Assembly (NCBI GenBank): GCA_016839365.1
Contig: JAEOUH010000070.1
Location: 68,166 to 132,165, forward strand
DNA: 64,000 nt
Origin: Candidatus Hermodarchaeota archaeon
GTDB lineage: Archaea > Asgardarchaeota > Hermodarchaeia > Hermodarchaeales > Hermodarchaeaceae
Direction of reading: 5' to 3'
Translations under genes and position numbers: made by a program
Part shown: positions 14,071-63,640 of the stretch, one piece after another
Layout of the letters: each line of letters begins with the position of its first letter
Numbering within the stretch: the first letter of the stretch is position 1
Notes under the pieces: model-generated
The model's database searches: none
Seen by the model: the letters and a program-made list of their open reading frames with translations, nothing else
What the model was told of the DNA's origin: nothing

Positions 14071-15225
14071 ATGGCTTTAGAAATTAGTCAAGAACAAGTG
14101 AATCGGTTTAGAATGGATAGGCACTATTTGAGTAAGCGAGCATTAAAGAGAGACTTAGCGGCTGTTGTCGAACGAGTGTGTGGTATTCAGGCGCAGATGC
14201 CTGCTGCAGCCAACCTTCAACTCTGGGCACGCATTCAAGATCTCGAACCTGAAGACATTACTACCAACCTCTGGACCACTAAAGCACTTCTCCGGACTTG
14301 GTCGATGCGAGGGACGGCGCATTACCATTCCACCTCCCAGTTTCAAGCTTATTTGAAAGCAATAATTGAACCCCGGATACCAAGACATAAAGAATGGCTA
14401 GCGAAGCGGGGGATGCGGGAATTCGGAGAAGTAGCCAAATTTGATCCATCTCAACATGACTTCGAAGCCATACTAGCTGCTGTCACCAAGGCATTAAAAG
14501 ATGGACCTGCAACCCGAGATGAAGTGGCTACCGTAGTGGCAAAGGAAGTCGGTCCTGAAGCCCGTCCTTGGGTTGATACAGGCTACTACATTGTTACCAA
14601 ACTATTGGCGTATGAGGGAAAGGTTTGTTTTGGCCCCGATTTGGAAGGGAAAGCCACACTCGTCCTGACTAATCAATGGCTCCCGAAACAGCCAAGGGTT
14701 AGTAAAGAAGCAGCAGAAGATACGGTTCTATCGCATTACCTCCAATGTTATGGACCAGCGACCCCTCAAGATTTCTCAGCATGGTCCGATCTTAAAATGC
14801 TAGCAGTGAAGCCAATTTGGGAGCGAAACAGCCCACATCTTGTCGAAGTAACTCTTAATGAGAAGCCTGTTTGGATTCTAGAGAAGGATCTTGATACGCT
14901 GCTGAATATACAACTAAAATCCCAGCCACTTCGCCTCCTCCCCCATTTCGATTCATTCTTACTCGGGCACAAAGAAAAAAGCCACATCGTTGAAGAAGCC
15001 CATTACAAACGAGTATTCAAAAAAGCCGCATGGATTGCCCCTATCCTACTCAAGGATGGAGTAGCCATCGGAATCTGGAAGCAGACACGTACATCAAAGA
15101 AAGTCACAGTCACAGCAGAACCGTTCGAGATATTCACAAAATCACAGCTTGAAGATTTAGAAGCTGAAACACAACGGTTAGGGGCCTTCTTCGATTTGGA
15201 TTCTGAAGTGAAGGTGATGAAATGA
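14071..15225 (+). CDS. HTH_42 winged-helix DNA glycosylase, AlkZ-like subtype (Q-hydrophobic-Q motif)
   Basis: YcaQ/AlkZ-family pattern (N-terminal RF...HYL, WTTKALLRTWSMRGT.H, C-terminal beta domain). The putative catalytic motif GIQAQ (Q-A-Q) sits at nt 14188-14196. RBS GGTGA lies upstream. Confidence 0.7.
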   Translation: MALEISQEQVNRFRMDRHYLSKRALKRDLAAVVERVCGIQAQMPAAANLQLWARIQDLEPEDITTNLWTTKALLRTWSMRGTAHYHSTSQFQAYLKAIIEPRIPRHKEWLAKRGMREFGEVAKFDPSQHDFEAILAAVTKALKDGPATRDEVATVVAKEVGPEARPWVDTGYYIVTKLLAYEGKVCFGPDLEGKATLVLTNQWLPKQPRVSKEAAEDTVLSHYLQCYGPATPQDFSAWSDLKMLAVKPIWERNSPHLVEVTLNEKPVWILEKDLDTLLNIQLKSQPLRLLPHFDSFLLGHKEKSHIVEEAHYKRVFKKAAWIAPILLKDGVAIGIWKQTRTSKKVTVTAEPFEIFTKSQLEDLEAETQRLGAFFDLDSEVKVMK

Positions 15226-16142
15226 TATTAGACAAGGAAGAAGCAGCTAGATTTTACAAACAAGTCGAAAAGCACTTCATTAAATGGGCAAATACTCAAG
15301 ATCACATTCGGGCTGCTATTGTGGTGGGCTCACAAGTACGCCCAAGTGCCCCAGCAGATGAATGGTCTGACCTGGATATCATTATCTTTTCAACAAATCC
15401 TAGCATCCTCATTGATTCAGAAGATTGGGTGGGTGAATTCGGGAATCCTGTGATCACCTTCATTGAACCCACAGCCAGCGGGGAAGGAGAAGAGCGCAGA
15501 GTACTTTATGATAATGGGTTAGATGTCGATTTTGCAGTTGACCCGATCCAATACATCCTTGAAACCAATAAGCACGGGATGACACCCAAATTAGCTCGTG
15601 AGCTGACTGATATTATTGGACGTGGTGTCGGAATTCTTGTTGACAAAGACAAGGTCATGGACAAGTTCATTACCGAGTTCAAACAGCATAAGCTTCCCCC
15701 ACCTAGTCAACCAACCGAATACAACTACCTTGAACGAGTGAATGATTTCTGGTATCACACAGTTTGGGCTGCTAAGAAAATTCGCCGAGGTGAATTGTGG
15801 GAAGGCAAAGCCTGTATAGACTCTTATATGAAGGGTCGCTGTTTATTGCCACTTATAGAATGGCATGCACGCCTAACTCAAGGAAAAGAGCATGACACCT
15901 GGTTCCGCGGCCGGTTCATGGAACGATGGGCGGATCCCCGAATCATTGCTGATCTTCGCAGTGCATTTGCCCATTACGACGAGGAGGATGTCTGGCAAGC
16001 GCTCGCTAACACAATGCAACTCTTCCGATGGATTGCCAGAGAAGTCGCAGAAAAGCTAGATTATACCTATCCCACGAATGCTGACCAGTTCGCTAGTCGG
16101 TGGGTAGATGCAGCATATTGGGATAAAGAGTCAAACGAGTAG
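15222..16142 (+). CDS. ANT(6)/AadK-like nucleotidyltransferase (aminoglycoside 6-adenylyltransferase family)
   Basis: NTase motif VGSQ...x...WSDLDIIIF. C-terminal blocks NDFWYHTVWAAKKIRRGELWEG and VWQALANTMQLFRWIAREVAEKLDYTYP parallel B. subtilis AadK (recalled). The start overlaps the upstream stop (ATGA at 15222-15225). Confidence 0.65.
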   Translation: MILDKEEAARFYKQVEKHFIKWANTQDHIRAAIVVGSQVRPSAPADEWSDLDIIIFSTNPSILIDSEDWVGEFGNPVITFIEPTASGEGEERRVLYDNGLDVDFAVDPIQYILETNKHGMTPKLARELTDIIGRGVGILVDKDKVMDKFITEFKQHKLPPPSQPTEYNYLERVNDFWYHTVWAAKKIRRGELWEGKACIDSYMKGRCLLPLIEWHARLTQGKEHDTWFRGRFMERWADPRIIADLRSAFAHYDEEDVWQALANTMQLFRWIAREVAEKLDYTYPTNADQFASRWVDAAYWDKESNE

Positions 16143-16150
16143 GCCACTAT

Positions 16151-16744
16151 ATGGAATTTAATAAGGTGAAACGCGCATTTGCTGATATGAGAATTCTTGT
16201 AGCCTATTACAGTGAAACTGGGAATACCAAACAAGTGGCTCAAGCGATGTATGAGGCCGCTTCCATAGATAATGAAGCGGAAATTAAAAGGATACAAGAT
16301 ATATTGGTTGATGAGCTCACGAAATATGATTTGTTAATTCTTGGGGCATGTTGTCACGATACGGACCTTGCCCGTCCCTTCAAACGCTTCTTAGATACTC
16401 TCCCCCCAAACCCCCATTTCAAACTCGCAGGATTCTTTACCCATGCAACCTTTACTCCTGAACATACGGCAAGAAGGAAGGAATTGTTCGCCCAATGGGC
16501 TGGTCGGTGTGAACCAACCTTTAAGCGAGTTTCTCAAGAAAAAGGGATTGACTTTCTTGGCTCTTTTCATTGCATGGGGGCCGCATCTGACCCAATTGAA
16601 AAATTTATTCACCAAGAAATCATCACCTCTGAAGAAGAATGGGACGAATATTATCCTGAACTCAAAAGGCATCCCAATTCCGATGATCTAGATAATGCCA
16701 AGAAGTTCGTCGTAAAAATACTCACAAAACTCTCTCCATCGTAG
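16151..16744 (+). CDS. Flavodoxin-like protein
   Basis: The FMN-loop-like N-terminus MRILVAYYSETGNTKQVA suggests the true start may be the ATG at 16187. The gene lies 8 nt after the NTase stop. Confidence 0.6.
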   Translation: MEFNKVKRAFADMRILVAYYSETGNTKQVAQAMYEAASIDNEAEIKRIQDILVDELTKYDLLILGACCHDTDLARPFKRFLDTLPPNPHFKLAGFFTHATFTPEHTARRKELFAQWAGRCEPTFKRVSQEKGIDFLGSFHCMGAASDPIEKFIHQEIITSEEEWDEYYPELKRHPNSDDLDNAKKFVVKILTKLSPS

Positions 16745-16951
16745 GAAGGCCTCATTCATAGTAAGGCATTAAACGCTTCAAATCTGGTTGATTTTTTCAA
16801 GCAAATCAACACACGATTTCTCCATGGTTGCGAGTCCGCCTGTTGGTCCACTCTCGTCGATGAAGGTAAAAACCGTTTCTTTATTCATAACTGGTTCCCT
16901 ACACGCTGATTTGCAAACTAATAGGGTGACTAGTGAGGTAAATGGTTTAGT

Positions 16952-17995
16952 TCAGAAACGGCGTCGTTTTTTCGGATAGACCTGGAAGGGTGTTCGAGGT
17001 TCCAAGCTAAACCAATCTGTTTCCTGGTCTAGACGCGTCAAGGATCGAAGCAGATCAAAGGTGACCCAGCGTGACACTTCTGGGTACCGTCGATATTCCC
17101 AGAGGCCGTAGGGACCTTGTAGCCCCTTGACGAATTTTACGTTTTCATCAACTCGGGGGTCCTCAAGGTTGGCTCCAATCCGCCATGACAAATCCAGCAT
17201 CTGTCCAACATCGTATCGCCGGAAATATGTAAATCCGCCACGAGGTGGCTCAGCTCCCACGATACGTGCCACTTCAAACCCCAGTGTATGGGCTTGGCGC
17301 TGCTCTTGGGCAAGCAACTTATCCAATCCTTTACGAGCAGGCTCACTTTTTCGTCGAGTGGGATGGAGGGCCAGTGCACTCACTGCTGCAGTAGTGTTGG
17401 TTCGACAGCCAAACTTTGAATGTGGGAGTCGACGATAACCTGCAGCAAAAATGAATTTTTCTTTATGGCGCCCTGATGGCCATCCGCCTTCAGGTAGTTC
17501 CTCATTGATTAGCCACTCATAAGCGGCTTCAGCGCGTTTATCCGTTGCATATCCCGCCCAGGCAAGTCCGATTAAAGGCAAAGCCGTCTGGACTGGCATG
17601 GCATGATACTTCACATCCTGCGATTTGCCACCATCCAGCAGAGCTCCCGGCGTAATCAACGGAAAGGCTCCATCCGATTGCTGTTGAGCAAAAAGGAATT
17701 CGGCCCCCTTTCTGATAGCAGAGTTCTTTGGGCCTAACCCGAAATACCCCAGGCCCATGAGGGCTTGGGCCGTCATGCGAATCTGTCCCAAAAAGGCACC
17801 CCCGCCTTCTCCGCTCCGAAAGGCTCCGTCTTGTTCCTGTAAGGCAAGGAACTTCTCAACTATTGGATCAGATTTTTGGAGCTTTTGGAGTTCTTGGATC
17901 TCTGAATCCGATTCAGGTCGGCTCAGAAGGTCGCGCAACACAAGAAGCCGGAGACTTGGCGATGGGTCAGCAAGAAGCAGTGGGGCCCAAGTCAT
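16952..17995 (-). CDS. Alpha/alpha-toroid (prenyltransferase / squalene-cyclase-like repeat) protein, function unknown
   Basis: Four spaced Q..DG.F / EGGW type repeats (QEQDGAF, QQSDGAFP, ELPEGGWPSG, LQGPYGLWEY). Its ATG (17993-17995) overlaps the TGA (17992-17994) of the upstream UvrA-like gene. Confidence 0.5.
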   Translation of the reverse strand: MTWAPLLLADPSPSLRLLVLRDLLSRPESDSEIQELQKLQKSDPIVEKFLALQEQDGAFRSGEGGGAFLGQIRMTAQALMGLGYFGLGPKNSAIRKGAEFLFAQQQSDGAFPLITPGALLDGGKSQDVKYHAMPVQTALPLIGLAWAGYATDKRAEAAYEWLINEELPEGGWPSGRHKEKFIFAAGYRRLPHSKFGCRTNTTAAVSALALHPTRRKSEPARKGLDKLLAQEQRQAHTLGFEVARIVGAEPPRGGFTYFRRYDVGQMLDLSWRIGANLEDPRVDENVKFVKGLQGPYGLWEYRRYPEVSRWVTFDLLRSLTRLDQETDWFSLEPRTPFQVYPKKRRRF

Positions 17996-20900
17996 GCTGT
18001 TCCCTCCAATACTTCATGAAGGTATGGTGCTGTTGGGGTATCCTCTTTCGCAATCTCTTCGGGGGTACCAAACGCGATGACTTTACCACCTTGAGGACCT
18101 CCTACTGGACCAAGCTCAATAATCCAATCACATGATGCTAAAAGATGGGGGTGATGCTCAACAACCACAACAGTATGACCTTCATCAACTAGCCTGTTTA
18201 AAACCGCAACAAGGCGGGCAACATCTTCCATGTGGAGTCCTACAGTGGGTTCATCAAGAATATACAAAGTGGGTTCATTCGCTTTTTTAAGGAGTTCTTT
18301 GGCGATCTTCAAACGCTGAACTTCTCCACCCGATAAAGTGTAACTTTGTTGCCGCCAAACAAGATACCCTAATCCCACTTCTCTGACGACTCGTAATGGG
18401 TTACCTATTTGGGGGTCCTCTTTGAAAAGTTCATAGATTCCATCAAGAGTCATCCTATTTAGATCAGGGAGTGTGATATCATGGACTCGAACCTGCCAGG
18501 CTTCAGGTCGGTATCCAGTTCCTCGACATGTCTCACATTCCACAAGCTCATTCGGCAGGAATCCCATATCTAAGCGTAGAAAGCCTTGACCCCGACAAGC
18601 AGAACAGTCCCGGGCGAGATCTTTTTCTCCCAAACCCAAAGCCATAGCATCATCACTCTGTAGAAAGATCTTTGCCATTGGTTGGACTAGATTCAGGAAA
18701 TTGGCAGGACTTCGAATACCCTGTCGCGACTGGTCAACAATGAAGGTTCGTTTGGGATTGCCGCTAATCGAGTCATGAACTCCTGGTTCTAAAGGTTCCC
18801 GGGCGAATGATGAAGTATGCTTTTGTTTGACTAGCGCCCGACCCACTGTATCAATGAGGAGCGTACTTTTTCCTGATCCCGAAACGCCACAAATCCCAGT
18901 CAGTGTACCAAGTGGTAGGTGGACATCTTCCCCTCGTAAGTTGTTTTCCCGTGCTCCTTTAACTACCATCCAGCCCTGAGGGGGCCGTCGTTTTGTAGTA
19001 TCCATCCACTTCTGGAGCCCAGCTTTCTTTTCAGAGATGGCTGTTCTATCTTTTACCAACCATCTACCAGTAATCGTATTTGCCTTGATGATATCCGCTG
19101 GTTCGCCTTCTGCAACAATTTCGCCACCAAGAGCCCCTCCCTGTGGACCCATATCAATTAAATGATCAGCCGCACGGATAATCAACAGATCATGTTCGAC
19201 CACAATAACCGTATTACCCTCATCACGCAACTCTTGTAACGCATCAAGCAAGGCTTCTAGTTCGGAGGGGTGCATTCCACGAGAAGGTTCATCCACCAGA
19301 ATTGTTAACGAAGTCAATCCGCTCCCAAGGAGACTAGCAAGCTGAATGCGTTGGGCTTCTCCCGCAGACAAAGTCCCAATAGGGCGATTCAAATGTAGGT
19401 ATCCAATACCAACTTGTCGTAAGAAGCGTAATCGTCGATGAATGATATCAAGACTAGTATCGACTAATGGGATTTCGGCTGGTGGCTGGGGAATCTGATT
19501 GATAAGGGTTTCGAGTTCTGTGATGGCAAGCTCACTCATCTCAAAGATGTTCTTCCCTCGTAACGTCACTGCTAAGAACTCAGGTTTGAGACCTGCGCCA
19601 TTACATTCAGGGCATACAACTTCCTTGGTATAGGTTCCATGAATGTCCCAACTAAATATCCAACTTTCGGGGCGAAAGAAGCCCTTCCATGTCCACTTGG
19701 TCTGGCGTTCTTTTCCTTTCATTCGACCCGTTGATTTGCTAATGTAAGTGAAGTGATAGGTTTCCCCATCGCCATTTAAGAACGCTTCTTGAGCCTCCTT
19801 GGACATCTCATTCCATGGGGTTTTGAAAGGGTCAAAATCATAGCGCTTACCCAGCGCATGTATAATCGGTTGATCCTTGCAAAGATAGGTTTTTGGCCAG
19901 TATCCAGGTGAGTACATCGCTCCAGCACAAAGAGGTTTATCAGGATTCACAATGAGTTTTTCAGGTTGGGGTATGCGCTGAATTCCTAGCCCATTACACT
20001 TTTTGCATGAACTTGTCCAATGCGCAGAGGAGAAATACTGCGGGTTCGCCAAAGGCGCAGAAGCATCGCATTTGGAACATCGCCATTCATCGCCACGCTG
20101 CATCGGAGCACCACATGCTAAACAAGTTCGTTCTCCTAATGACGTGAAGAGGTTGGCAAGGTGGGGGCTAATTTCCGTGAGTGCACCGACAGTATTCCGA
20201 CGAGTGAACTGCGGGATGTGGCTCCAAAGATGGGCTCGGTGAGTCGCGACAGTTAGTGTCACTCCCAATCCAGTAATTGAATCAACAGTTGCTTCAGCAC
20301 CTTCACGGATTCCTTGGCGCTCATACATCGACAGTGTTTCAAGATATCTGCGGCGAGCCTCGGCTTGCAAAACATTTTGCACTAAACTTGACTTCCCAGA
20401 ACCAGACACACCCGTAACAACGGTTAATGAGCCCTTTGGAATGTCGACGTTGATCCCCTTCAAGTTGTTCGCTCGAGCATTTCGCACGGCAATAACAGGT
20501 GATTCAACAGGCTCTGTTTTCTCAGGCATTCCACGTGGCTGAATATGAGTTTCGTTTCTCAAAGCCTCGCCTGTTAAAGAGCCTTTGACATCCAACAACT
20601 GTTTTGGCGAACCCTCGTAGAGAAGTTCACCACCTTGTGGTCCTGCACCTGGACCAAGATCGATAATCCAGTCAGCTGCCTGCATAAAGTCGGTGTTGTG
20701 CTCAACTACTACAATGGTTGCTCCGTACCGCACCAATCGATCTAAAACCACAAGTAGTCCATTAAGATCATTTGGATGGAGTCCAGTTGAAGGCTCATCA
20801 AGGATAATTAGCTGATTTGTTAACCGGCTTCGCCCCAAAAACTTGGTGAGTTTCACCCGTTGAGCTTCACCACCTGAGAGGGTTGGTGAGGGTTGTCCCA

Positions 20901-22920
20901 ACTCCAGATACCCCAGCCCCACATCAGTTAGCGCTTTGAGAATGCGTTGAGCGGCTTCGCGTTTCGATTCAGACAAGTGTGGAGATTTTGTCAACATTTC
21001 CTCGGTATCAGCAATCGGAAGGGCATAGAAATCAGCAATGGAGAGTTGTTCCCCATTAAAGTCCACCAGCGCTGACAATACTTCTCGGCTAAAGCGTTGC
21101 CCCTTACATTCCTCACAGGGAAGCCAGATGGATGGGAGATATTGCATTTTCACTTCAGAAGCCCCGATGCCTTTACAAAGGGGGCAAGCACCTTCGGGAC
21201 GATTGAAAGAGAAGTGTGACTTTGATAGCCCTGTAGCCTCGGCAAAGAGATCACGGATAATATCTGCGAGTTTCGTATAGGTTGCTGGATTGGAGCGTGG
21301 GTTACGCCCAATGGGACTTTGGTCCACTAACACAGGCTTAATCGTTGCCCTTTCAATCTCTTCACACCCTATGGGTTTCTTCTGAGCCAAGGAGGGTACA
21401 AGCACATGCTCCACCAGGGTGCTTTTCCCTGAACCCGATACACCAGATATTACGGTCAAGCGACCCAATGGGATTTTCACATCGATATTCTTCAGGTTAT
21501 GTTGGTGCGCCTTCTTGACTGTAATGAAACTTTCTGGTTGCGAACGGGATTCAGGAGTAACAACGCGATTTCGGAGACTGAAATACTGTCCCGTGACGGT
21601 ATCCGCTAGCCACAACTGTTTGGGTGAGCCTTCAAAGATTACTTCTCCACCGTTCTTTCCAGCCCCAGGACCTAAGTCAATTGCATAATCGGCTGATGCA
21701 GCTGCTACTCGTTCATGTTCGACAAAGATCACAGGTCCGGATAATTCACGGAAAGCGGGTAGAAACCGGGCTATATCTGCTGGGTGCTGACCAATGGTTG
21801 GTTCATCTAGTACATGTATAACGTCTTCCAGACGACTGGACAAAGAAATAGCCAGCCTCACCCGCTGCGATTCACCTCGTGATAAGGTTGGAGATGACCG
21901 GTCCAAGGATACATATCCGAGTCCCACTCGCTCCAAGGCATCGAGCCGTCGCTGAATCTCGTAAAGTAATCGATTCGCCGTCGAAGGTAATTTCACACGC
22001 TTGAACAGTTTATGAGCTCCATCAACAGAAAGCGTGAGCAGTTCTGGTATTCGCATACCTTCCCAGCGGACTGTTGCAGCTTGAGGATGCATCCCAGTTC
22101 TATCACAGCGCTCGCAGCCCGTACCTTTGCAATAGGGGCATGGTTGATTGAAATGCGTTGGACGCAGCTCTCGAAAGCCTGTTCCACACACAGTGCAATT
22201 CTGTGTCGTTGTCAGGGTTAGGCTAGATTTCCTAGATGTTGAGCGGATAGCTCCTGCGCCTAACGCAGTTGCCTGTTGTGTAAGTTGTCGAATTTTCTTT
22301 GTTGAGGTTTTAGCATCAATTTCTCCGAGATAGAGGTCGATGGAATGAGGCTCTATTGGAGATAATGCGTTTCCTTGCCATTCTTTTCCATCAACAAATA
22401 ATCGTTCTTTCTCAAATTCGTTGCTCAGAGTCGCAAGCAGGGTCCTATGACTTCCCTGGACGTCCTTTAAGAGCGGTGCGAAGAGTTTGTGGGACTCCTC
22501 CCTAGACAAGGCTGTTAATTGTTCGAACAGTTCATCTTCGGTCAACACTGACAACGGTTCGTTGCATTTCAGACAATGACGAACTCCATAGTTCGCAAAG
22601 AGTAATCGTAAAAACGGGTGCAACCCCGACGCAGTTGCAAGGGTCGATCCCGGGTTTCGATTCAACAGATTTTGACCCACAGCAATTGCAGGTCCCAAAC
22701 CTGTGATTTTCTCAACATTCGCCGGGGCCAATCGTTGACCACCCCGACCATATAAGAAGACATCCAAGAAGCGCCTATTTGCTTCATGGTACAAAGTATC
22801 AAACACCAAGGAGGTCTTGCCTGAACCCGAGACCCCAGTGACCACAGTAAGTCCATCACGGAATCGAACATCAATATTCTTGAGGTTGTGCTCACTGGCA
22901 CCCTTCACATGGATGTCCAT
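17992..22920 (-). CDS. Tandem-fused UvrA-like protein (two UvrA2-type units, four ABC ATPase modules)
   Basis: Four Walker A GVSGSGK[TS] motifs were verified in the DNA at 22813-22836, 21421-21444, 20389-20412 and 18865-18888. There are four signatures (LSRGESQR, LSGGEAQR, LSAGEAQR, LSGGEVQR), four Walker B motifs (VLDEPT, ILDEPS, LVDEPS, ILDEPT) and Cys4 zinc modules in each half. Residues ~808-860 restart a UvrA N-terminus. Confidence 0.9.
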   Translation of the reverse strand: MDIHVKGASEHNLKNIDVRFRDGLTVVTGVSGSGKTSLVFDTLYHEANRRFLDVFLYGRGGQRLAPANVEKITGLGPAIAVGQNLLNRNPGSTLATASGLHPFLRLLFANYGVRHCLKCNEPLSVLTEDELFEQLTALSREESHKLFAPLLKDVQGSHRTLLATLSNEFEKERLFVDGKEWQGNALSPIEPHSIDLYLGEIDAKTSTKKIRQLTQQATALGAGAIRSTSRKSSLTLTTTQNCTVCGTGFRELRPTHFNQPCPYCKGTGCERCDRTGMHPQAATVRWEGMRIPELLTLSVDGAHKLFKRVKLPSTANRLLYEIQRRLDALERVGLGYVSLDRSSPTLSRGESQRVRLAISLSSRLEDVIHVLDEPTIGQHPADIARFLPAFRELSGPVIFVEHERVAAASADYAIDLGPGAGKNGGEVIFEGSPKQLWLADTVTGQYFSLRNRVVTPESRSQPESFITVKKAHQHNLKNIDVKIPLGRLTVISGVSGSGKSTLVEHVLVPSLAQKKPIGCEEIERATIKPVLVDQSPIGRNPRSNPATYTKLADIIRDLFAEATGLSKSHFSFNRPEGACPLCKGIGASEVKMQYLPSIWLPCEECKGQRFSREVLSALVDFNGEQLSIADFYALPIADTEEMLTKSPHLSESKREAAQRILKALTDVGLGYLELGQPSPTLSGGEAQRVKLTKFLGRSRLTNQLIILDEPSTGLHPNDLNGLLVVLDRLVRYGATIVVVEHNTDFMQAADWIIDLGPGAGPQGGELLYEGSPKQLLDVKGSLTGEALRNETHIQPRGMPEKTEPVESPVIAVRNARANNLKGINVDIPKGSLTVVTGVSGSGKSSLVQNVLQAEARRRYLETLSMYERQGIREGAEATVDSITGLGVTLTVATHRAHLWSHIPQFTRRNTVGALTEISPHLANLFTSLGERTCLACGAPMQRGDEWRCSKCDASAPLANPQYFSSAHWTSSCKKCNGLGIQRIPQPEKLIVNPDKPLCAGAMYSPGYWPKTYLCKDQPIIHALGKRYDFDPFKTPWNEMSKEAQEAFLNGDGETYHFTYISKSTGRMKGKERQTKWTWKGFFRPESWIFSWDIHGTYTKEVVCPECNGAGLKPEFLAVTLRGKNIFEMSELAITELETLINQIPQPPAEIPLVDTSLDIIHRRLRFLRQVGIGYLHLNRPIGTLSAGEAQRIQLASLLGSGLTSLTILVDEPSRGMHPSELEALLDALQELRDEGNTVIVVEHDLLIIRAADHLIDMGPQGGALGGEIVAEGEPADIIKANTITGRWLVKDRTAISEKKAGLQKWMDTTKRRPPQGWMVVKGARENNLRGEDVHLPLGTLTGICGVSGSGKSTLLIDTVGRALVKQKHTSSFAREPLEPGVHDSISGNPKRTFIVDQSRQGIRSPANFLNLVQPMAKIFLQSDDAMALGLGEKDLARDCSACRGQGFLRLDMGFLPNELVECETCRGTGYRPEAWQVRVHDITLPDLNRMTLDGIYELFKEDPQIGNPLRVVREVGLGYLVWRQQSYTLSGGEVQRLKIAKELLKKANEPTLYILDEPTVGLHMEDVARLVAVLNRLVDEGHTVVVVEHHPHLLASCDWIIELGPVGGPQGGKVIAFGTPEEIAKEDTPTAPYLHEVLEGTA

Positions 22921-24302: not shown

Positions 24303-25043
24303 ATGTTGCTAGAAAAAACTGAGACTCCTGATCTCTTCGGGTTGATACTCAAGAAACAACTCAAATCCGAAGAACCTGTTTACCATCTCATTGAACGGGA
24401 AGATGGCTATATCCAATGCACTAGCACGTTGAAATATTTCGCCAAGAAGGAAGACTGGCCAGAAAACGAACAAGCCCTTCTTGAGCAAGCTGAATCGCCC
24501 GTTCTCGACATAGGTTGTGGAGCTGGACGACATGCGCTCTTCCTGCAAGAAAGGGGACTGGATGTTGTTGGCTTTGACATTTCAGAAGGAGCCATTTATG
24601 TCTGCAAAAAGCGTGGATTGAAGAAAGTCGTATTGGGTTCAGCAGCTAACTTACCCTCATTTAAACAGCCTTTCAACACTTTCCTTTTGCTTTTTAACAA
24701 CTTCGGCATTCTAGGAAATCAACCCAACACCCTCAGAATGCTTAAAAACCTACATCAACTTGGAACTCCAGATGCAAATATCATACTCTCCTCTGCAAAT
24801 GTAGAACAAACCAATGATCCATTTCATCTTGCATATCAAAAGCAGACTCTAGCGGCAGGACGTCTCAAAGGGGAAATAATCATTCGGTTCCGGTTACTCG
24901 GGTATTTTGGATCTTGGTTCGGCCTCTGGCTCCCCACCCGTAACCAATTTCAAGAGGCGACACAACAAGCGGGCTGGACAATTAGTAAAGACTCAGACAG
25001 AGAAGGATTTCACCACGTCATGCTCACCAAAGCGGAGCCATAA
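24303..25043 (+). CDS. Class I SAM-dependent methyltransferase
   Basis: Motif I VLDIGCGAGRHALFL followed by VVGFDIS. RBS GAGGTGA lies upstream. Confidence 0.8.
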   Translation: MLLEKTETPDLFGLILKKQLKSEEPVYHLIEREDGYIQCTSTLKYFAKKEDWPENEQALLEQAESPVLDIGCGAGRHALFLQERGLDVVGFDISEGAIYVCKKRGLKKVVLGSAANLPSFKQPFNTFLLLFNNFGILGNQPNTLRMLKNLHQLGTPDANIILSSANVEQTNDPFHLAYQKQTLAAGRLKGEIIIRFRLLGYFGSWFGLWLPTRNQFQEATQQAGWTISKDSDREGFHHVMLTKAEP

Positions 25044-28437: not shown

Positions 28438-28485
28438 CCTAATTTCAACTCCTTTCAAACTTCCTTTTCTTTCCATTGAGGTCCT

Positions 28486-31748: not shown

Positions 31749-32042
31749 AGAGTCTGTGTCTCGTTATATTGAATGGAGGTTCAGTTTTCTAGGCAGCTTA
31801 TAATACTTCTTCCCAACGGAAAGCTTTATATCATACTTCAAGAGCATGTTCTCACTCACTGAGAAAAATAAAGTCGTTCGATGCACCCACTTTAAGTGAC
31901 CTGAACCATCGAACACCAACGGGGGAAGAACCAAGCAGCACTCAATTAGTCACAATCGGTGACCTCATGAAGTGAGTCCCCCTTTAATAGGCTCAGGCAC
32001 CTGGGAACATCAGCGCACCAACACAACCGAACGTGGATAAAC

Positions 32043-41301: not shown

Positions 41302-41363
41302 CGTATGGCTCTCTTAAAATATACTTCTCGTATAAAAAGGTAACTGACCAGTCAGTCAATAAA

Positions 41364-53241: not shown

Positions 53242-54558
53242 TTAGGCTCCCGAGTTGGAATCACTTTCTGGTTGATCTTGTACCTCATCTTTCCCAATTT
53301 CATGTTTTTCGAGTTTCTCTTCGACATGGCGGAGGCCTGTAAATACCCATGTGAGAAGCAAGAAGCTAATCATGATACTCCCAAAGAATAGAAAGATGAG
53401 TGGAATTGAAAATATCTCCGCGAGTATACCAGCGGCCAGAAACGCAAAGGGTCCCGTGAACTGTGCGATCGTTAAACGGACTGAAAAAACTCGACCCATT
53501 TTTTCCGGAGGTACAACCTTTTGCCATATCGTTTGACTAGAGACATTGGCTACAGGCAAGGTGAATCCAACAAGGACGATGCCAAGTGCAGCCACCCAAA
53601 ACAGGCCAACTGGGGTCAAAGCAAGAATGACCATCCCAAGGGCACCAAGGAATAATCCGAGGACAACGCCGATAACATTACGTTTGAAACCTCCGGAAAC
53701 CATCATGATAGCAGATGCAATCATCATGCTTGCGCTCTGCAACGACATCAGGATGCCTAGGTACACGACAGCTAGATCGAGGTTCAGAAAGGCAAGATTG
53801 ATGGTGGTGTAAAGGGGAAGCAGGACGAAAATGGGTGGAAGAAAGAAGTTGGCCAGAGTGAATACCGAAAGCAAGGTCAGTAGTCCAGATCGTGACCTTA
53901 TGAATGTGAGACCTTCAGCGAATTCCTCTCTAAAGGACGGTTTATCTTCTTGGACTTTCTTCTGAATTGCTGGTATGGTCACAAGGATTGCAGGAAAAAT
54001 CGCGATCAGATAGGTTCCAATATCTATAAAGAGAATCCTAGCCATGTCTCCAAGAAAGATAAGAAACACCAAGGCGCCGATTGCGGGTCCAATAGTCTGA
54101 ACAAACGCTGTGGCAAAATAGTTCAGACTATTCATACGAGTTAGGTGCTTTCTGGGCACCATGATTGGAATAATGGCTTGAACGGCTGTAGCGTGGAACG
54201 CGCCGACCATTCCACCTACTAATTGGATTAGGAGCACATGAGTGATATTAGTTATCCCTAGGAAGAATAGGATGACGAGAATCAGACTCAACATTGCAAG
54301 GATGCTATCTGCAACAATAATGACTTTCTTGCGCGACCAGCGGTCAACTAAGACGCCAGCGATGGGTGTAATGAGGATGAAACTTCCGAATGCGAAGAAT
54401 GCCGAGATACCCAAGAAAAAGGCACTGCCAGTTTGAATGGTTATCCACCAAACCAGACTAAAGTTGACAATGTTGGTGCCGGCTAATGATGCAAGTTGGC
54501 CACCCCAAAAAATGAGGTAATGGCGAAAAGTGCGTTTATCTGGTTCCAGCTGGTTCAT
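53242..54558 (-). CDS. MFS transporter (EntS/macrolide-efflux-like)
   Basis: HYLIFWGGQLASLAGTNIVNFSLVWW...GVLVDRWSRKKV. There are 12 TM helices. Confidence 0.75.
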   Translation of the reverse strand: MNQLEPDKRTFRHYLIFWGGQLASLAGTNIVNFSLVWWITIQTGSAFFLGISAFFAFGSFILITPIAGVLVDRWSRKKVIIVADSILAMLSLILVILFFLGITNITHVLLIQLVGGMVGAFHATAVQAIIPIMVPRKHLTRMNSLNYFATAFVQTIGPAIGALVFLIFLGDMARILFIDIGTYLIAIFPAILVTIPAIQKKVQEDKPSFREEFAEGLTFIRSRSGLLTLLSVFTLANFFLPPIFVLLPLYTTINLAFLNLDLAVVYLGILMSLQSASMMIASAIMMVSGGFKRNVIGVVLGLFLGALGMVILALTPVGLFWVAALGIVLVGFTLPVANVSSQTIWQKVVPPEKMGRVFSVRLTIAQFTGPFAFLAAGILAEIFSIPLIFLFFGSIMISFLLLTWVFTGLRHVEEKLEKHEIGKDEVQDQPESDSNSGA

Positions 54559-54624
54559 GGTATATCAGATCCTCAAACGTGGGCTTGAGTAATATTCTCA
54601 TTATGCGAGAATACGCTCTTGTAC

Positions 54625-58739: not shown

Positions 58740-59354
58740 TCAGGATTTCTTGATTGGTTGACGAATCACTGTTCGCAACTTCTCTGGCACTGTTCGACGT
58801 GGATCACTAAGATAGATTTCATGGTGTTTTCCACGGAGCTCATAACCCTGATTAAAGGCATACTGGTGCATAGCTTCAATCACAGGGCCTTCTTCCGAGA
58901 AGGGGCCAATGTGCATTACTTGAACCGATACGCCCTCCTTATAGGTTTCCAACCGCATCTTGGGTAAGGCAACGGGGGCGTTCTTTTTCTGCACTGCCTC
59001 AATGGCTTCTTTATAGTATTCTTGTGTCACTTCAGGAGGCTGCATGATCATGGAAGTCCAGAGCCATTCATCCTTTCGAGTATCGATAATGAAGACCGTC
59101 ATATCCTTTGCCCACCACAAACCTTCGAGGGGCATCACCGTATAATCAATGATTCTGGCTTTCTTCAAGGCAAACTTCAACGTATAGGATACGGGGTAGA
59201 GGGCTTCCATCGCCTGTGTGTATTCAATTGAGGTTCCTGGGTAGCCCTTCCCGTCAATCATGAGGTACTGCATGGGCGGTACATCAACGATAACCGGTTT
59301 TCGGCCTGGCTTGTAGATTTCTTTGAATATTTTTTTATGATCTATTTTTTCCAT
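58740..59354 (-). CDS. GyrI-like domain protein (second subfamily)
   Basis: IYKPGRKPVIVDVPPMQYLMIDGKGYP ... MHIGPFSEEGP ... HHEIYLSDPRR matches the recalled ~200-aa GyrI-like pattern. Confidence 0.65.
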   Translation of the reverse strand: MEKIDHKKIFKEIYKPGRKPVIVDVPPMQYLMIDGKGYPGTSIEYTQAMEALYPVSYTLKFALKKARIIDYTVMPLEGLWWAKDMTVFIIDTRKDEWLWTSMIMQPPEVTQEYYKEAIEAVQKKNAPVALPKMRLETYKEGVSVQVMHIGPFSEEGPVIEAMHQYAFNQGYELRGKHHEIYLSDPRRTVPEKLRTVIRQPIKKS

Positions 59355-59473: not shown

Positions 59474-60358
59474 TCATGGCAGGTGAGGTATTATCAAAAA
59501 AAGGATTAGAAGAAAACATAAGATGATGCTTATGATACAAGCAACCGCTATATTTCTAATTTGTGTATTCCATCTCCTCCGTTGATAAGTACCCACCATG
59601 ATAAAGGTTAGAAACGATAGAGGGAGGGCCATTATAAGGCCAGGGATGATTAAGGGCCATCCATAGAGGTACATCAATCCCCGTGTTACAAGGAACCATA
59701 CCCCAACAGCAATTCCTGCGACAATCTTAGGGAGCCCATGCGTGATTGTCTGGTCTCTTTTGATTTGCTGTCGTATGGGCTCGATATCTTGACGATAGAC
59801 TCGAAATCGTAGATAGGCTTGAAGAATACGGACTAATCGGATTTCTTTCTTACCACCGGTAAGATAGATATTCGTGTAGTAGCAAAGATTCGTTCTCGTT
59901 TTACGCCCCCCATGTTCTATAACAAGATCAACTACCTCTATTCCCTTGACATCGAAAGTAATTCGACTGATTGAAGGCCATTGAATGTTGTGATTATTGC
60001 CAAAAACGCGTGGCAGTGAAATCCCATCTATTGAAATGACCATGTACTTCCTCCGAAGGAAAATGGACCACACAACAAAGACAATCCCCAGGATTAAGAA
60101 AAAACATGCAAACAAATCACCGATGCCCCAGATAAATATGGTGCCATAAATCCAGAGAGTCGCCCACGTGATGACTCCCCAACTAAAGAACAGAGCAGCA
60201 CTCCCGAGGACAACGAAAATCCATATTCCCCAGGGAAAGAAATGTGCCTCATAGCCTTGGATTCGGCTGACCATCATCATTTCATCATCATAGGGTTTGA
60301 TGATCTTTCGGTCGAGTTTGAACCGTTCATATGCATATTCTAAATCCCTTTGCCCCAT
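59474..60358 (-). CDS. Hypothetical membrane protein with a central soluble insert
   Basis: TM helices flank a ~90-aa beta-rich segment (MVISIDGISLP...ITFDVKGIEVV). Confidence 0.5.
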   Translation of the reverse strand: MGQRDLEYAYERFKLDRKIIKPYDDEMMMVSRIQGYEAHFFPWGIWIFVVLGSAALFFSWGVITWATLWIYGTIFIWGIGDLFACFFLILGIVFVVWSIFLRRKYMVISIDGISLPRVFGNNHNIQWPSISRITFDVKGIEVVDLVIEHGGRKTRTNLCYYTNIYLTGGKKEIRLVRILQAYLRFRVYRQDIEPIRQQIKRDQTITHGLPKIVAGIAVGVWFLVTRGLMYLYGWPLIIPGLIMALPLSFLTFIMVGTYQRRRWNTQIRNIAVACIISIILCFLLILFLIIPHLP

Positions 60359-60450: not shown

Positions 60451-61260
60451 ATGGTGTCAGATGATGGTATCATTGCTAAGACAAAACAGACTTTAATAGA
60501 GATTAGCCAAAAGGCGCATCGGCATCCCGAAGTTATTGCTCAAGCTGAAAAGGTGGACTGGTATGAGGATTTCTCAGCAGGATATAAGGGTCTTTACTAC
60601 TTCGTGCCCGTTTCACTCTCTTCCCGTTATAAACGCCACTTACGAGTAGCAGCCTTGAATGTGCCCATGGTTCGAAAAGTGAGTGGGAACCTCTTTCAAG
60701 AACTCCGACTAGAAGGTCTGCGAGACGTGGACACCATCTTAGCGTATTGTAATGCCTTGTTAAGGCAATGGAGTTGGGAATATCGCACTATCGCCTTCGA
60801 CTGGTCCTATCGAGTTCGCAAAGACTTTGAACCCCGTCATTTTCCAATCTTCGAGGGTTGGACCAGACTTTACCTATCCACTTGGGGTGGTGTTGATGAT
60901 TTTTGCACCCATACCATGGGCTACTTTTTCGACACATTTTCTCAGTTTGTTCCGAAGGTGCTTGGCTGGGCGACTTCGGAGAATCCGTGGATTCTGCGAG
61001 CTGCAGCTGTATCACTCATCTTTGGGTTGCGTCGTGGTCGACATGTAGAATACATTTTTGATGTCGCCGATGCTATGTTATTAGACCCACGGAAGTACGT
61101 ACAAACCGGGTATGGCTGGATGCTTAAAGAGGCAACGAAACACTTCCAGGATCAGGTCTTTGATTACGTGATGGAAAAGAAGGACAAGATGCCCAGACGA
61201 GCCCTCCGTTATGCTATTGAAAAAATGCCCAAGACGCTCAAAGCCCAAGCCATGGACTAG
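60451..61260 (+). CDS. DNA alkylation repair (AlkD-like HEAT-repeat) protein
   Basis: WATSENPWILRAAAVSLI...LLDPRKYVQTGYGWMLKEATKHF...PRRALRYAIEKMP fits the recalled W..S.N.W.rR.A...D....VqKg.GW.LRE...lRYA.EK pattern. Confidence 0.6.
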   Translation: MVSDDGIIAKTKQTLIEISQKAHRHPEVIAQAEKVDWYEDFSAGYKGLYYFVPVSLSSRYKRHLRVAALNVPMVRKVSGNLFQELRLEGLRDVDTILAYCNALLRQWSWEYRTIAFDWSYRVRKDFEPRHFPIFEGWTRLYLSTWGGVDDFCTHTMGYFFDTFSQFVPKVLGWATSENPWILRAAAVSLIFGLRRGRHVEYIFDVADAMLLDPRKYVQTGYGWMLKEATKHFQDQVFDYVMEKKDKMPRRALRYAIEKMPKTLKAQAMD

Positions 61261-61326
61261 ATTTAACACTTTCCCCTAACGTTATGCTCTTAATGGGATT
61301 AGACACAATATGACGTTGTGGTTCAC

Positions 61327-61776
61327 ATGACTGAAATGCATGGTTATTGTGGGTATCGGTGCCATTTGTGTGCCGCCCAATCTCCAGATGAAAAAACCCG
61401 GCAAAAGCTAGTTGATGGGTGGCGCAAGTACTTTGGGCACCAGAATTATACTGCCCAAAATGTGCAGTGTGATGGATGCAAGGCTGACGGAAAACTCGCA
61501 GACAAGGAATGCCAAGCGCGACCTTGTGCCAAAGAGCGGGGGGTCGATTATTGCATGACTTGCGATGACTTCCCCTGTGATAAGGTGAAGAAACTAATGG
61601 GCAGTCGAAATGGGATGCTCCTTTATAGTCTCCCCCGAACATATGATATTACTGAAGATGAATACAATCTGTGCATGACTCAATTCGATTCAATGCCTTT
61701 CATTCTCAGGATCCTCACTGAGCATCAGAAAGTTCCCCGATGGTGGAAAGTACCAAATAAATCACAGAAGAAATGA
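61327..61776 (+). CDS. DUF3795 Cys-rich protein
   Basis: GYCGYRCHLCAAQ...CDGCKADGK...CQARPCAKERGVDYCMTCDDFPCDK. The ORF opens at GTG 61318. Confidence 0.65.
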   Translation: MTEMHGYCGYRCHLCAAQSPDEKTRQKLVDGWRKYFGHQNYTAQNVQCDGCKADGKLADKECQARPCAKERGVDYCMTCDDFPCDKVKKLMGSRNGMLLYSLPRTYDITEDEYNLCMTQFDSMPFILRILTEHQKVPRWWKVPNKSQKK

Positions 61777-61881
61777 ATATCAGTTCATCGAAGTCAATGC
61801 AGCTGAATACCTCAGAAGTCTCAACTCATTTGTGGAGAAAAAAGAAAAAGTGGAACATAGTTTGTGTTAAACGATGTTCCT

Positions 61882-62160
61882 TTAGGCTCCACCTTTTCCA
61901 CTGGGCAGAATTGCGCCAGCGACCAGAGTTAAAATGCCAGGCACGACACCAGTGAAGATGAGTGCGAGAATGCCAGTAACGATGGCTCCGGTCTTATGCT
62001 CCACGGGGTTATCCCGCCAGGAGAGCCAGAGGGCGCCAAAAACGATTCCAACGATTGCCAATGGAATGGTAATAACACCGAAGATTAAAAAAACCGAAAT
62101 GATAATCTGCAGGATTCCGGCAACGAGGAGTAACGTGCTTGCGGTTTCTTCATCGCTCAT
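61882..62160 (-). CDS. Small two/three-TM membrane protein
   Basis: MSDEETAS... followed by hydrophobic helices. A TTTATATT box lies about 45 bp upstream. Confidence 0.45.
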   Translation of the reverse strand: MSDEETASTLLLVAGILQIIISVFLIFGVITIPLAIVGIVFGALWLSWRDNPVEHKTGAIVTGILALIFTGVVPGILTLVAGAILPSGKGGA

Positions 62161-62398
62161 GTTGTAACCTCTCAAAGAAGGTTATGTTGTCTTACTGGTT
62201 GAAATATAAATTCTTTAGTATCCATGGACGCCCTGCTATCCGTAGATGGTTGAAGTATGAATTTCTATGATGTAGTTTCAACCAACTGAACTGTGTGGTT
62301 CTGACCTTCTATTGTATGAAAGAAAAATCAGTTTACCTCTTGTAAAAAACATTACAACATATGATAAAAGAAATTCACTACACCTTTTTCTTATACAT

Positions 62399-63640
62399 CT
62401 AGCTAGTAAGTGCGTTCTTCAGCTTGGCAGGTTTTGCCCTTTCAATACGAATCTGATCAAGGTTGTGAAAGTCTTTGAAGCGCTGCAATTCCTCTCCGAT
62501 GGCTTCGATTGCATCGTTTAATTGATTCCGTGGAAGAGTGACTTCTACGTTGCGGAGGATAAGTGTCTTGTTTGCCCGATCCGCTTTTGGGTCGATTCGC
62601 CCAATCAGGTTGTGTTTCCACAAAATAGGTGTGATATAGTAGCCAAATTGCCTTTTCGCTGGAGGAACATAGGCTTCGAGTTTAATCTCCATATCAAACA
62701 ACTCTCTTACTCGTTGGCGGTCCCAGACCAGATTATCGAAGGGATTAAGGAACCAAGCACGCGAGGAAGAGTAGCGCCGATCTTGAATTTGATGTAGAAA
62801 CGGTAATCGACGAGTAAGTATGTAATATTGCTGCGTTGATTGGGATACATCAATTCGCATCACTACATCTTCTTGTTCCAACTGGGCCAGGAGTTGTTCC
62901 ATAATTTTAGTTCGATTTTTCGGTCGTTGTTCAGCGCCATAATCTAAGGCGTAATTCCTCAAACTAATGTATTCTAAAAGTTGCCTTGGCGTACTTGTAA
63001 CCAAGCACTCAAGGCTACGTTCCAAGAAAAATCGCCATACTTGGTCTCGGTCCACCTCTTGGTTCAGGTATTTACTGGGAATGGCGCGTTCGGTGAGGTC
63101 ATAGAGACGTTGAAAGTTCTTACGCTCCACAACAGCAATACGCCCTCTTGTCCATAGGAGATCTAGTGCCACCTTTGCAGGTTTCCAGTCCCAGAAGCCC
63201 CCGCGCTTCTTTCCACTGGGATCTTCGAAATCCCTGCTACTTAACGGCCCTTCGTTTCGGATTCGGGCTTCGACAACATCCATCAAATCCCTATGCTCAT
63301 TGTAGAGCTTTTGATACCATGAATTATACGTTGTTGGGTCACGTTGCATGTGATGCCAATAGTATGGGTACTCTTCGATAGGAACAACAGAACAGGCATG
63401 TGCCCAGGTTTCGAATACCTGACGCTCACGAAGTGCTTTCCACACATGGCCCGGCTCGTAATCTTTTACACGGTTTCGTAGTGTGAGGTGATGGCTGCGG
63501 GCAACTACAGAAACTGTGTCAATTTGAACAGCTGCAATTTCTTGGACGGCTTGTTTAACCGAGGTCCATGATGGGGCATCATCTAATCCTTGTCGGATGG
63601 TAAACGCTGCTCGGAGGGTTGGGATGTCACTGAATACCAC
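62399..63640 (-). CDS. HTH_42 winged-helix DNA glycosylase, YcaQ-like subtype (Q-hydrophobic-D motif)
   Basis: The putative catalytic motif AVQIDTV (Q-I-D) was verified in the DNA at 63518-63526. Family blocks are VFETWAHACSVVP and GYYITPILW. The start is GTG. Confidence 0.75.
   Translation of the reverse strand: MVFSDIPTLRAAFTIRQGLDDAPSWTSVKQAVQEIAAVQIDTVSVVARSHHLTLRNRVKDYEPGHVWKALRERQVFETWAHACSVVPIEEYPYYWHHMQRDPTTYNSWYQKLYNEHRDLMDVVEARIRNEGPLSSRDFEDPSGKKRGGFWDWKPAKVALDLLWTRGRIAVVERKNFQRLYDLTERAIPSKYLNQEVDRDQVWRFFLERSLECLVTSTPRQLLEYISLRNYALDYGAEQRPKNRTKIMEQLLAQLEQEDVVMRIDVSQSTQQYYILTRRLPFLHQIQDRRYSSSRAWFLNPFDNLVWDRQRVRELFDMEIKLEAYVPPAKRQFGYYITPILWKHNLIGRIDPKADRANKTLILRNVEVTLPRNQLNDAIEAIGEELQRFKDFHNLDQIRIERAKPAKLKNALTS

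Follow-up and report, generated by a model that had tools for sequence, protein, structure and literature searches.

Between positions 14071 and 63640 of a 64-kb window on the longest contig of a Candidatus Hermodarchaeota genome, genes for the repair of DNA adducts stand together with genes for the sensing, modification and export of small molecules. The best explanation for this region, one that we credit and doubt in about equal measure, is that independent modules for small-molecule defence and for the repair of DNA adducts have come together in this one lineage and are passed on vertically, in what appears to be a non-producer. The strongest functional signals are two tight sub-clusters, at 14.1-22.9 kb and 58.7-63.6 kb, and intact catalytic residues; what we infer is which substrates are handled, that the toxins are of exogenous origin, and any selective reason for the clustering. 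The window, meaning here the whole 64-kb stretch that was analysed, covers positions 68166-132165 of contig C46 (153.5 kb), and 47 open reading frames (ORFs) between 14071 and 63640 were scanned against Pfam. Its genome (G000) comprises 2.225 Mb in 93 contigs and is 83.7% complete; compared genomes are given G numbers, the genus of G000 is called g1, and G007 is its closest relative. An earlier note on this DNA had named a series of resistance and repair families, nearly all of which Pfam found where the note had placed them. The list needs amending in that the UvrA protein is not a pair of UvrA2 units, the MFS transporters number three, and the score of the DinB-like protein is below threshold.

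The most informative of the proteins is the GyrI-like one at 58740-59354 (minus strand), a Lin2189/YtkR7-type protein and candidate cyclopropanoid cyclopropyl hydrolase. It is about 50% identical to Listeria Lin2189 (3B49, E 3.6e-48) and keeps the acidic pair of the reference, with E155 and E179 in the places of E157 and E185. The published cage (Y46, W85, W99, F154, Y187, plus Y54 and Y58) is matched as well, by F152, Y181, W80, W97, Y45, Y53 and Y57, so that the acidic pair and aromatic cage of a cyclopropyl hydrolase are complete. These residues are required to hydrolyse the cyclopropane warhead of yatakemycin and CC-1065, and an archaeal member of the subfamily, Methanosarcina MA1133, has already been assayed (Yuan et al., PMC5684135). 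Upstream of the hydrolase gene, on the same strand, is an ORF for a 294-residue hydrophobic protein that is probably a membrane protein (59474-60358, minus strand; only weak EbsA and STM3941 matches, conserved in the genus). This gene has a 92-bp divergent intergenic region in common with the gene for an AlkD-like HEAT-repeat DNA glycosylase (60451-61260, plus strand; PF08713, 131 bits). The glycosylase aligns with B. cereus AlkD at E 1e-9, its W145, D149 and W223 falling on Trp109, Asp113 and Trp187, the catalytic triad of AlkD (PMC8626424); the PF08713 match and the W/D/W triad are together the marks of the AlkD/YtkR2 glycosylases. Another 57 bp downstream begins the gene for a Cys-rich DUF3795 protein (61318-61776, plus strand; PF12675, 55 bits), and the AlkD-like/DUF3795 pair is kept in G007, G010, G012 and G013. 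Both DUF3795 genes of the genome lie in the region, and the other one (26770-27882) adjoins the YcaQ-like gene in the sister genus (L017, L021). A general linkage of DUF3795 genes to glycosylases in Asgard archaea was considered and dropped, as the adjacency was seen only within this family. With the YcaQ-like gene described below, the hydrolase, AlkD-like and DUF3795 genes make up the sub-cluster at 58.7-63.6 kb.

The earlier note had divided two HTH_42 proteins into one AlkZ-like and one YcaQ-like, and the division proved right: the former has Q40-A41-Q42 and the latter Q39-I40-D41, the motifs of the AlkZ-like (AZL) and YcaQ-like (YQL) subfamilies being (Q/H)ΦQ and QΦD, respectively (PMC9040887). 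The AZL-type glycosylase (14071-15225, plus strand) matches PF06224 over its full length (199.7 bits) and aligns with S. sahachiroi AlkZ (5UUJ) at E 5e-32, with CGVQAQ over CGIQAQ and Q40-A41-Q42 on QAQ. The YQL-type glycosylase (62399-63640, minus strand; PF06224, 187.4 bits) aligns with PDB 9ZD6 at E 9e-40, with IQID over VQID; it is the one YQL-type copy in the genome and lies outside biosynthetic clusters. Judging by these alignments, the AZL, YQL and AlkD-like proteins all look catalytically competent. YcaQ-like enzymes are always found outside biosynthetic clusters and are given a general role in genome protection with broad N7-alkylguanine specificity; those AZL-type enzymes that have been investigated are specific for a toxin (PMC9040887). 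The AZL gene of the window has no nonribosomal peptide synthetase (NRPS) or polyketide synthase (PKS) core genes nearby, whether in the window, in the 21 kb downstream or in the genome, and stands apart from the location that is typical of its subfamily, though not obligatory for it. Its orthologues were found in genus g1 only. The nearest homologues with a named organism outside Hermodarchaeota come from Thermoplasmata metagenome-assembled genomes (MAGs) at 37-41% identity, followed by Methanobacteriota and Acidobacteria, and a Bacillota match at 32% has no neighbours in common. The wider HTH_42 family is far from rare in these archaea: a 2022 census had only 12 archaeal proteins (PMC9040887), and AlkZ-like HTH_42 matches, one to five per genome, occur in 18/18 other genomes searched in this Asgard family, so that the census is out of date.

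Two observations concern the surroundings of the YcaQ-like gene. In G007 it is missing from the syntenic site (C41, ~1792-2400), where both flanking genes are present. In the window, 34 bp upstream of it and on the same strand, is a gene for a zinc-ribbon plus Ras-family small GTPase of Asgard type (63675-64000, continuing to C46:132649).

The AZL gene is the first of a plus-strand operon. Its stop codon overlaps by 4 bp the gene for an ANT(6)-like nucleotidyltransferase (15222-16142, plus strand; PF04439, 159 bits), and the third gene encodes a flavodoxin of Flavodoxin_3/5 type (16151-16744, plus strand; PF12641, 48 bits). A bona fide aminoglycoside 6-adenylyltransferase was considered for the second protein and rejected: it scores far under the NCBIfam equivalog cut-offs (138 bits for AadS, cut-off 450; 89 for ANT_6, cut-off 420) and is placed in the broad PF04439 family only. 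ANT(6)-like and Flavodoxin_3 genes are likewise near one another in a Theionarchaea MAG. On JGI contig Ga0374083_0284408 (L068), from an unrelated metagenome and 600 kb long, an ANT(6)-like gene stands amid genes for PadR, a TehB-like methyltransferase, PNPOx, DUF6064, luciferase-like and MFS proteins, a mix that overlaps that of the middle part of the window.

This operon converges on a minus-strand operon of two genes, and the two lie tail-to-tail in the sub-cluster at 14.1-22.9 kb. The larger gene encodes a UvrA-type ATPase (17992-22920, minus strand), a single chain of 1642 residues with four nucleotide-binding domains (NBDs), whose matches to UvrA proteins in the PDB reach E 7e-193 and whose Walker A motifs are at residues 29, 493, 837 and 1345. 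Its halves were read by alignment to the genome's canonical UvrA on contig C45 and by Pfam. A UvrB-binding-like domain is confined to the N half (PF17760, at 21.3 bits against a cut-off of 23.3), which lacks an insertion domain; the insertion/DNA-binding domain (PF17755, 32.5 bits) is confined to the C half, which lacks a UvrB-binding domain. What defines class IIa UvrA proteins, Ecm16 and DrrC among them, is that they have lost the UvrB-binding domain (PMC9328131), and a class II protein, with no such domain and two NBDs per chain, is not what the whole chain amounts to. The double UvrA2-type protein of the earlier note must accordingly be given up, the domain content of the two halves being different and only the C half class-II-like, as the N half keeps a PF17760-like stretch. 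Proteins of the same family (~1630-1650 residues, 60-72% identical) occur in Bathyarchaeota, in Chloroflexota/Anaerolineae/Dehalococcoidia, in Desulfatiglandales and in Acidobacteria, those of Chloroflexota being 60-67% identical. The smaller gene (16952-17995, minus strand), translationally coupled to the first, encodes a partner of 347 residues with a weak squalene-cyclase-C-like match (PF13243, E 5.6e-7). The same partner gene, of about the same length, follows the UvrA gene with the same 4-bp overlap in three contigs (L071, L072 and L073, from Bathyarchaeota, Chloroflexota and Anaerolineae); an AlphaFold model of the partner, made from a 7-sequence alignment, has a pLDDT of 37 and is unusable. 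The unit read divergently from the UvrA gene comprises two unknown genes, a SAM methyltransferase gene (24303-25043, plus strand; assigned by Pfam) and a BtrH_N/DUF4872 gene (25047-26378, plus strand; assigned by Pfam, with a weak DarH-like acyltransferase match).

How unusual is such an accumulation? The whole genome was searched with each Pfam model, and by phmmer with each window protein against all six-frame ORFs. Several families have all their genomic members in the region: AlkZ-like (2/2), GyrI-like (3/3), AlkD-like (1/1), TetR (1/1), ANT(6)-like (1/1) and DUF3795 (2/2). Others are shared with the rest of the genome: UvrA-type (1/2), MFS (3/~20), GNAT (2/~25) and FMN_red (1/6). Taken together, eleven families have 17 of their 67 genomic members within 49.6 kb, or 2.2% of the genome, where 1.5 would be expected (binomial p ~1e-13); 0 of 20,000 trials of random placement reached 17 in any window of equal size, and the richest same-size window off contig C46 has 4 members. 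Of the members of rare families 9/10 are inside the region, and common families taken alone are enriched too (8/57, p ~4e-5). The earlier note had offered the enrichment as an impression; tested against the rest of the genome it is real, and it is far from chance even if the genes are collapsed to four or five loci.

The region is old and vertical within the genus. All of it, from 14 to 64 kb, is collinear in 14/14 other species genomes of the genus at 65-87% nucleotide identity (for example, G007:C41:1792-63594 and G014:C6:54.8-96.2 kb), and protein maps give the same gene order with conserved flanks (NAD kinase and neighbours, 84-94% amino-acid identity). Against the closest relative, the ratio of nonsynonymous to synonymous substitution (dN/dS) is 0.05-0.18 for all block genes tested, which indicates purifying selection; between G000 and the other species, most genes are already saturated at synonymous sites. 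The earlier note had suggested a check of GC and codon usage for signs of horizontal acquisition, and the composition gives none: GC is 45.0% in the region against 45.9% in the genome, and the tetranucleotide distance is average. The window has no tRNA gene and no Rfam match, and no integrase-type Pfam family was found among the window genes scanned. A recent island was therefore rejected on composition and synteny, there being no deviant composition, tRNA flank or variable presence among relatives.

Beyond the genus the picture is more fragmentary, as most contigs of the sister genus do not extend far enough to show whether the genes cluster. Orthologues at 47-62% identity exist there for the UvrA partner and the BtrH/DUF4872, YQL, hydrolase, AlkD-like, TetR and ArsR-GyrI proteins, and none was found in the sister genus for the AZL of QΦQ type or for the ANT(6)-like nucleotidyltransferase. 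The YQL gene lies there between BtrH/DUF4872 and DUF3795 genes, ~5 kb from the UvrA gene. It is thus near UvrA in both genera, in an altered order, which implies that the proximity of UvrA and HTH_42 genes outlasts rearrangement. Two sister-genus contigs around AlkD-like and weak GyrI matches (G015:C161 and G018:C10) carry no block genes. In another Asgard family, AlkD-like and AlkZ-like genes are 4 kb apart (G033:C122:4201-10065; L015), with genes for a BglII-type endonuclease, a DUF1028 protein and unknowns between them.

If the region is indeed an aggregation of independent modules, they could act in succession on a toxic compound and on the damage that it causes. Sensing and sequestration would fall to an ArsR-GyrI regulator and, in some species, to a free copy of its ligand-binding domain. 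The compound might then be destroyed or modified by the Lin2189/YtkR7-type hydrolase, GNAT acetyltransferases, the ANT(6)-like protein, methyltransferases and flavoproteins, or exported by three MFS pumps, two of which are behind one shared operator-like element. On the DNA itself, removal of bulky minor-groove alkylpurines would be the task of the AlkD-like enzyme; its AlkZ-like and YcaQ-like neighbours would take out N7-alkylguanine adducts and also unhook interstrand crosslinks; and the four-NBD UvrA and its partner would recognise or clear distorting adducts. The UvrB-binding-like domain of this UvrA suggests a hand-off to UvrB encoded elsewhere in the genome; canonical uvrB and uvrA genes are found together on contig C45. 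A single operon or regulon is not what the region looks like, with its many units on both strands and a shared element at two MFS genes only. Its units are separately transcribed and apparently separately regulated, and the block thus resembles a defence island.

The presumed sensing and sequestering proteins belong to a five-gene minus-strand unit that encodes the ArsR-GyrI protein, the free GyrI/Cass2 protein, a GNAT, a DUF3795 protein and a 121-residue protein. The first of these, an ArsR-type winged helix-turn-helix fused to a GyrI/Cass2 effector-binding domain (29009-29893, minus strand; HTH_5 plus Cass2/GyrI-like), is a candidate small-molecule-sensing regulator, with orthologues at 71-84% identity in the genus and 47-48% in the sister genus. 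The free GyrI/Cass2-type ligand-binding protein (28486-28974, minus strand; PF14526, 49.7 bits) is a paralogue of its effector domain (phmmer E 1e-47, ~48% identity); it is present in G000, G005 and G010 and absent from G007, G014 and G006. Both domains are without the region that bears the catalytic Glu pair in the hydrolase and are better read as ligand binders, and the free protein is reminiscent of drug-sequestering proteins that consist of a sensor domain only. The remaining members with Pfam matches are GNAT acetyltransferase 1 (27895-28476, minus strand; PF00583, 44 bits) and the second DUF3795 Cys-rich protein (26770-27882, minus strand; PF12675, 35.8 bits), whose C-terminal half is without assignment. 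Next to this unit, also on the minus strand, are genes for GNAT acetyltransferase 2 (30061-30570; PF00583, 35 bits), an FMN reductase-type flavoprotein (30700-31257; PF03358, 92 bits) and an ATC_hydrolase-like protein (31254-31748; PF14196, 79 bits), the last overlapping the FMN_red gene by 4 bp.

For the MFS transporters the earlier note had counted three or four. Pfam recognises three and no fourth: transporter 1, of MFS type and 528 residues long (32043-33629, plus strand; PF07690, 32.8 bits against a cut-off of 33.4; orthologues 68-89% identical in the genus), transporter 2 (46827-48059, minus strand; PF07690, 94 bits) and transporter 3 (53242-54558, minus strand; PF07690, 123 bits). A 27-bp operator-like element, CAAGAGCATGTTCTCACTCACTGAGAA, stands between a TATA-like box and the MFS 1 gene that follows (31839-31865, plus strand), and a second copy lies just past a TATA-like box upstream of the MFS 3 gene (54595-54621, minus strand). 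The element is palindromic, CAAGAGC[AG]T[GA]TTCTC-N7-GAGAA, and has only these two copies in the 2.2-Mb genome. It is kept upstream of MFS 1 in five relatives (G007, G014, G005, G010 and G006) and upstream of MFS 3 in three, which is good evidence that a single regulator acts on both of these exporters, whose genes are separated by 22 kb.

The sole TetR regulator of the genome (40642-41301, minus strand; PF00440, 73.9 bits) is divergent from a gene for an ICMT/PEMT-type membrane methyltransferase (41364-42032, plus strand; PF04140, 55 bits). Between the two genes is a perfect palindrome, ACTGACCAGTCAGT (41343-41356), a candidate TetR operator that is unique in the genome and is kept in the matching intergenic region of G007, G014, G005, G010 and G006. 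The ICMT gene probably starts at ATG 41364 rather than at GTG 41286, because a gene that began at the latter would run into the TetR start and take in the conserved palindrome. A tentative DinB/YfiT-like protein (34583-35104, plus strand) matches PF05163/PF12867 at E ~0.05, with ~14 bits against a cut-off of 23-25 bits; the weak match spans the full profile, and H60 and H150-x3-H154 are present. From 34 to 58 kb, in its middle part, the region is altogether mixed: besides the DinB-like, TetR/ICMT and two MFS genes it has methyltransferase, DUF4332, C45-type hydrolase, PLP decarboxylase, DUF885, DUF6064, GGT and MBL-fold protein genes.

The theme continues for 14 kb past the window. Genes at C46:134497-146596 encode ArsR, a MacB-type ABC exporter, PadR, FMN_red and Flavin_Reduct proteins, together with an MBL-fold protein, a GNAT, a DrrA-like ABC-2 exporter, an α/β hydrolase and an Fpg/Nei glycosylase. 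At the other end, positions 1-10010 of the window hold a protein of >2102 residues that runs off the window start, followed by an internally repetitive protein of 1145 residues, both with several paralogues on other contigs.

The main rival explanation, which we regard as possible if somewhat doubtful, is that the clustering is neutral. The region would then be an accessory-rich stretch whose genes were acquired long ago, many by transfer, and whose order has been kept by descent without any benefit, and its thematic coherence would lie partly in the reader's eye. Much of what can be said for this account also weighs against an aggregation of defence modules. Synteny within one genus can be inheritance alone, and the weakest points of the defence explanation are selection on the aggregation and a response to one stimulus. 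Of the 47 genes, about half have no evident tie to the theme or are unknown, and the unrelated ones, such as GGT, DUF885, PLP decarboxylase and DUF4332 genes, are interspersed with the rest; by phmmer, the majority of the region's genes are singletons within this genome, irrespective of function. The list of families was fixed after the window was seen, and adjacent paralogues are not independent. Other copies of these genes, or biosynthetic genes, may be unassembled at 83.7% completeness. In other lineages the modules occur apart. Hydrolase, AlkD-like, AlkZ-like and DUF3795 genes are common but dispersed in other Asgard genomes, and in the closed genome G039 the hydrolase, AlkD-like and DUF3795 genes are spread over >1 Mb. 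ANT(6)-like genes elsewhere have no AlkZ neighbour, and a comparable PadR/methyltransferase/DUF6064/MFS/ANT(6)-like mix is seen on the unrelated 600-kb metagenome contig mentioned above. The UvrA gene and its partner stand amid unrelated genes in Bathyarchaeota and Chloroflexota contigs, and a conserved pair among such neighbours is therefore a mobile two-gene module. Nor was a block-wide regulatory motif found: a search for 14-mers (with up to 2 mismatches) common across 33 intergenic regions returned the MFS element only and none that joins the DNA-repair units, and the candidate TetR operator is purely local. What neutrality accounts for less well is, first, that the two tight sub-clusters unite complementary enzymes, with the hydrolase, AlkD-like and YQL genes within 5 kb of one another and the AZL operon tail-to-tail with the UvrA operon. 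Second, the proximity of UvrA and HTH_42 genes has survived rearrangement between two genera. Third, the enrichment extends to the common families and not just to the rare ones.

A housekeeping role seems improbable. Under this explanation the glycosylases would repair endogenous or abiotic alkylation, arising from SAM-derived methylation or from reactive metabolites of anaerobic hydrocarbon metabolism, and the small-molecule genes would belong to general stress metabolism. The general protective role assigned to YcaQ-like enzymes fits such a view (PMC9040887), as do the frequency of AlkD-like genes in Asgard archaea (31/41 genomes) and the vertical, stable history of the block. The hydrolase is harder to accommodate, however, since it retains all the residues that are needed to open the spirocyclopropyl warhead of yatakemycin or CC-1065 and belongs to a subfamily without a known endogenous substrate. 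The toxin specificity of AZL-type enzymes where studied (PMC9040887) and the company of ligand-sensing regulators and exporters in which the repair genes are found also argue for something other than housekeeping.

Self-resistance of a producer is very improbable. It would require biosynthetic genes that are of a kind not recognised here or that lie in a part of the genome missing from the incomplete assembly. Streptomyces AZL genes lie at a mean of 2.3 kb from a biosynthetic cluster (PMC9040887), the region has tailoring-type enzymes (a BtrH_N/DarH-like acyltransferase, a C45-type acyltransferase/hydrolase, methyltransferases and a PLP decarboxylase), and a radical-SAM gene is found just past the window. 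Yet the earlier note had seen no PKS or NRPS genes in the window, and none was found there or in the rest of the 83.7%-complete assembly: it contains no NRPS condensation domain, its ketosynthase matches are thiolase-like and partial only, not of PKS type, and no core biosynthetic gene was recognised in the 64-kb window and the 21 kb downstream. A non-producer fits the genome better than a producer. The "resistome" of a non-producer that the earlier note had proposed is upheld in part, through its accumulation of families, the intact catalytic residues, the purifying selection and the failure of the searches to turn up NRPS or PKS genes, but recent horizontal acquisition and a motif shared by the repair units are not borne out. 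Contamination of the bin, or the recent arrival of a bacterial island, can be dismissed almost entirely, for although several of the families are typically bacterial, AlkZ-like models matched bacteria only among 14 control genomes, and the UvrA resembles Chloroflexota proteins, the block and its flanks (84-94% identity) recur in independently assembled Hermodarchaeota MAGs from different studies, GC and tetranucleotides are genome-typical, and neither a tRNA gene in the window nor an integrase-type Pfam family among its scanned genes was found.

The component families are all known; what is new is their combination in a conserved, producer-independent archaeal block with AZL, YQL, AlkD-like, yatakemycin-type hydrolase and four-NBD UvrA proteins. 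Work on resistance and repair proteins that act against DNA-damaging natural products has hitherto dealt almost entirely with bacterial producer clusters, or with single proteins of non-producers. With four such systems in one conserved block and no producer locus, the region would demonstrate heavy investment against alkylating and crosslinking toxins by sediment Asgard archaea, the closest prokaryotic relatives of eukaryotes. A bolder claim, that this is a true chemical-defence island selected as a neighbourhood like the anti-phage islands, we consider unlikely, but its consequences would be considerable. DNA-alkylating natural products would be a major selective force on sediment Asgard archaea, and uncharacterised conserved members of the block would be new genotoxin-resistance factors through guilt by association. 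Candidates would include the squalene-cyclase-like UvrA partner, the DUF3795 proteins by the AlkD-like and YcaQ-like genes, the BtrH/DUF4872 protein, the membrane protein upstream of the hydrolase, and the ANT(6)-like/flavodoxin pair coupled to the AlkZ-like gene. Should the clustering be neutral, what is left is a useful catalogue without a new principle. It supplies a list of intact archaeal enzymes to assay: the AlkZ-like, YcaQ-like and AlkD-like proteins, the yatakemycin-type hydrolase and the four-NBD UvrA.

Among known systems, the closest counterpart of the hydrolase and AlkD-like units is the yatakemycin set of Streptomyces sp. TP-A0356, YtkR2 and YtkR7 (PMC5684135, PMC8626424). Here too, a triad-bearing AlkD-like protein and a cage-bearing hydrolase are encoded ~1.1 kb apart, and their units are read from one divergent intergenic region. 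In contrast to the Streptomyces set, there is no biosynthetic cluster, the host is an archaeon, membrane and DUF3795 proteins are added, and the activity is a predicted one. Homologues of YtkR2 and YtkR7 do occur in other non-producers, namely B. cereus AlkD, Listeria Lin2189 and Methanosarcina MA1133 (PMC5684135, PMC8626424). The two HTH_42 proteins recall AlkZ, which provides self-resistance to azinomycin B, and E. coli YcaQ (PMC7367128, PMC9040887) in that one is of QΦQ and the other of QΦD type, both full-length and well over the Pfam cut-off, whereas AZL here is neither in nor near a biosynthetic cluster. The UvrA-type protein is like the class IIa proteins DrrC, Ecm16 and D. radiodurans UvrA2 (PMC9328131) in its C half, which has no UvrB-binding domain. 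It differs from them in having four NBDs in one chain and an N half that is UvrB-binding-like and has no insertion domain; in the contigs examined it is coupled to a squalene-cyclase-like partner gene, and its family is widespread in uncultured anaerobes.

For the block as a whole, the nearest analogy is with anti-phage defence islands, in which independent protective modules lie side by side, are separately regulated and form hypervariable assemblages. Independent modules and separate regulation are found in the present region as well, and, as in those islands, what unknown neighbours do may be predicted from the theme that they share. The differences are that the presumed threat here is chemical and that the block, in contrast to hypervariable islands, is syntenic and stable across the genus.

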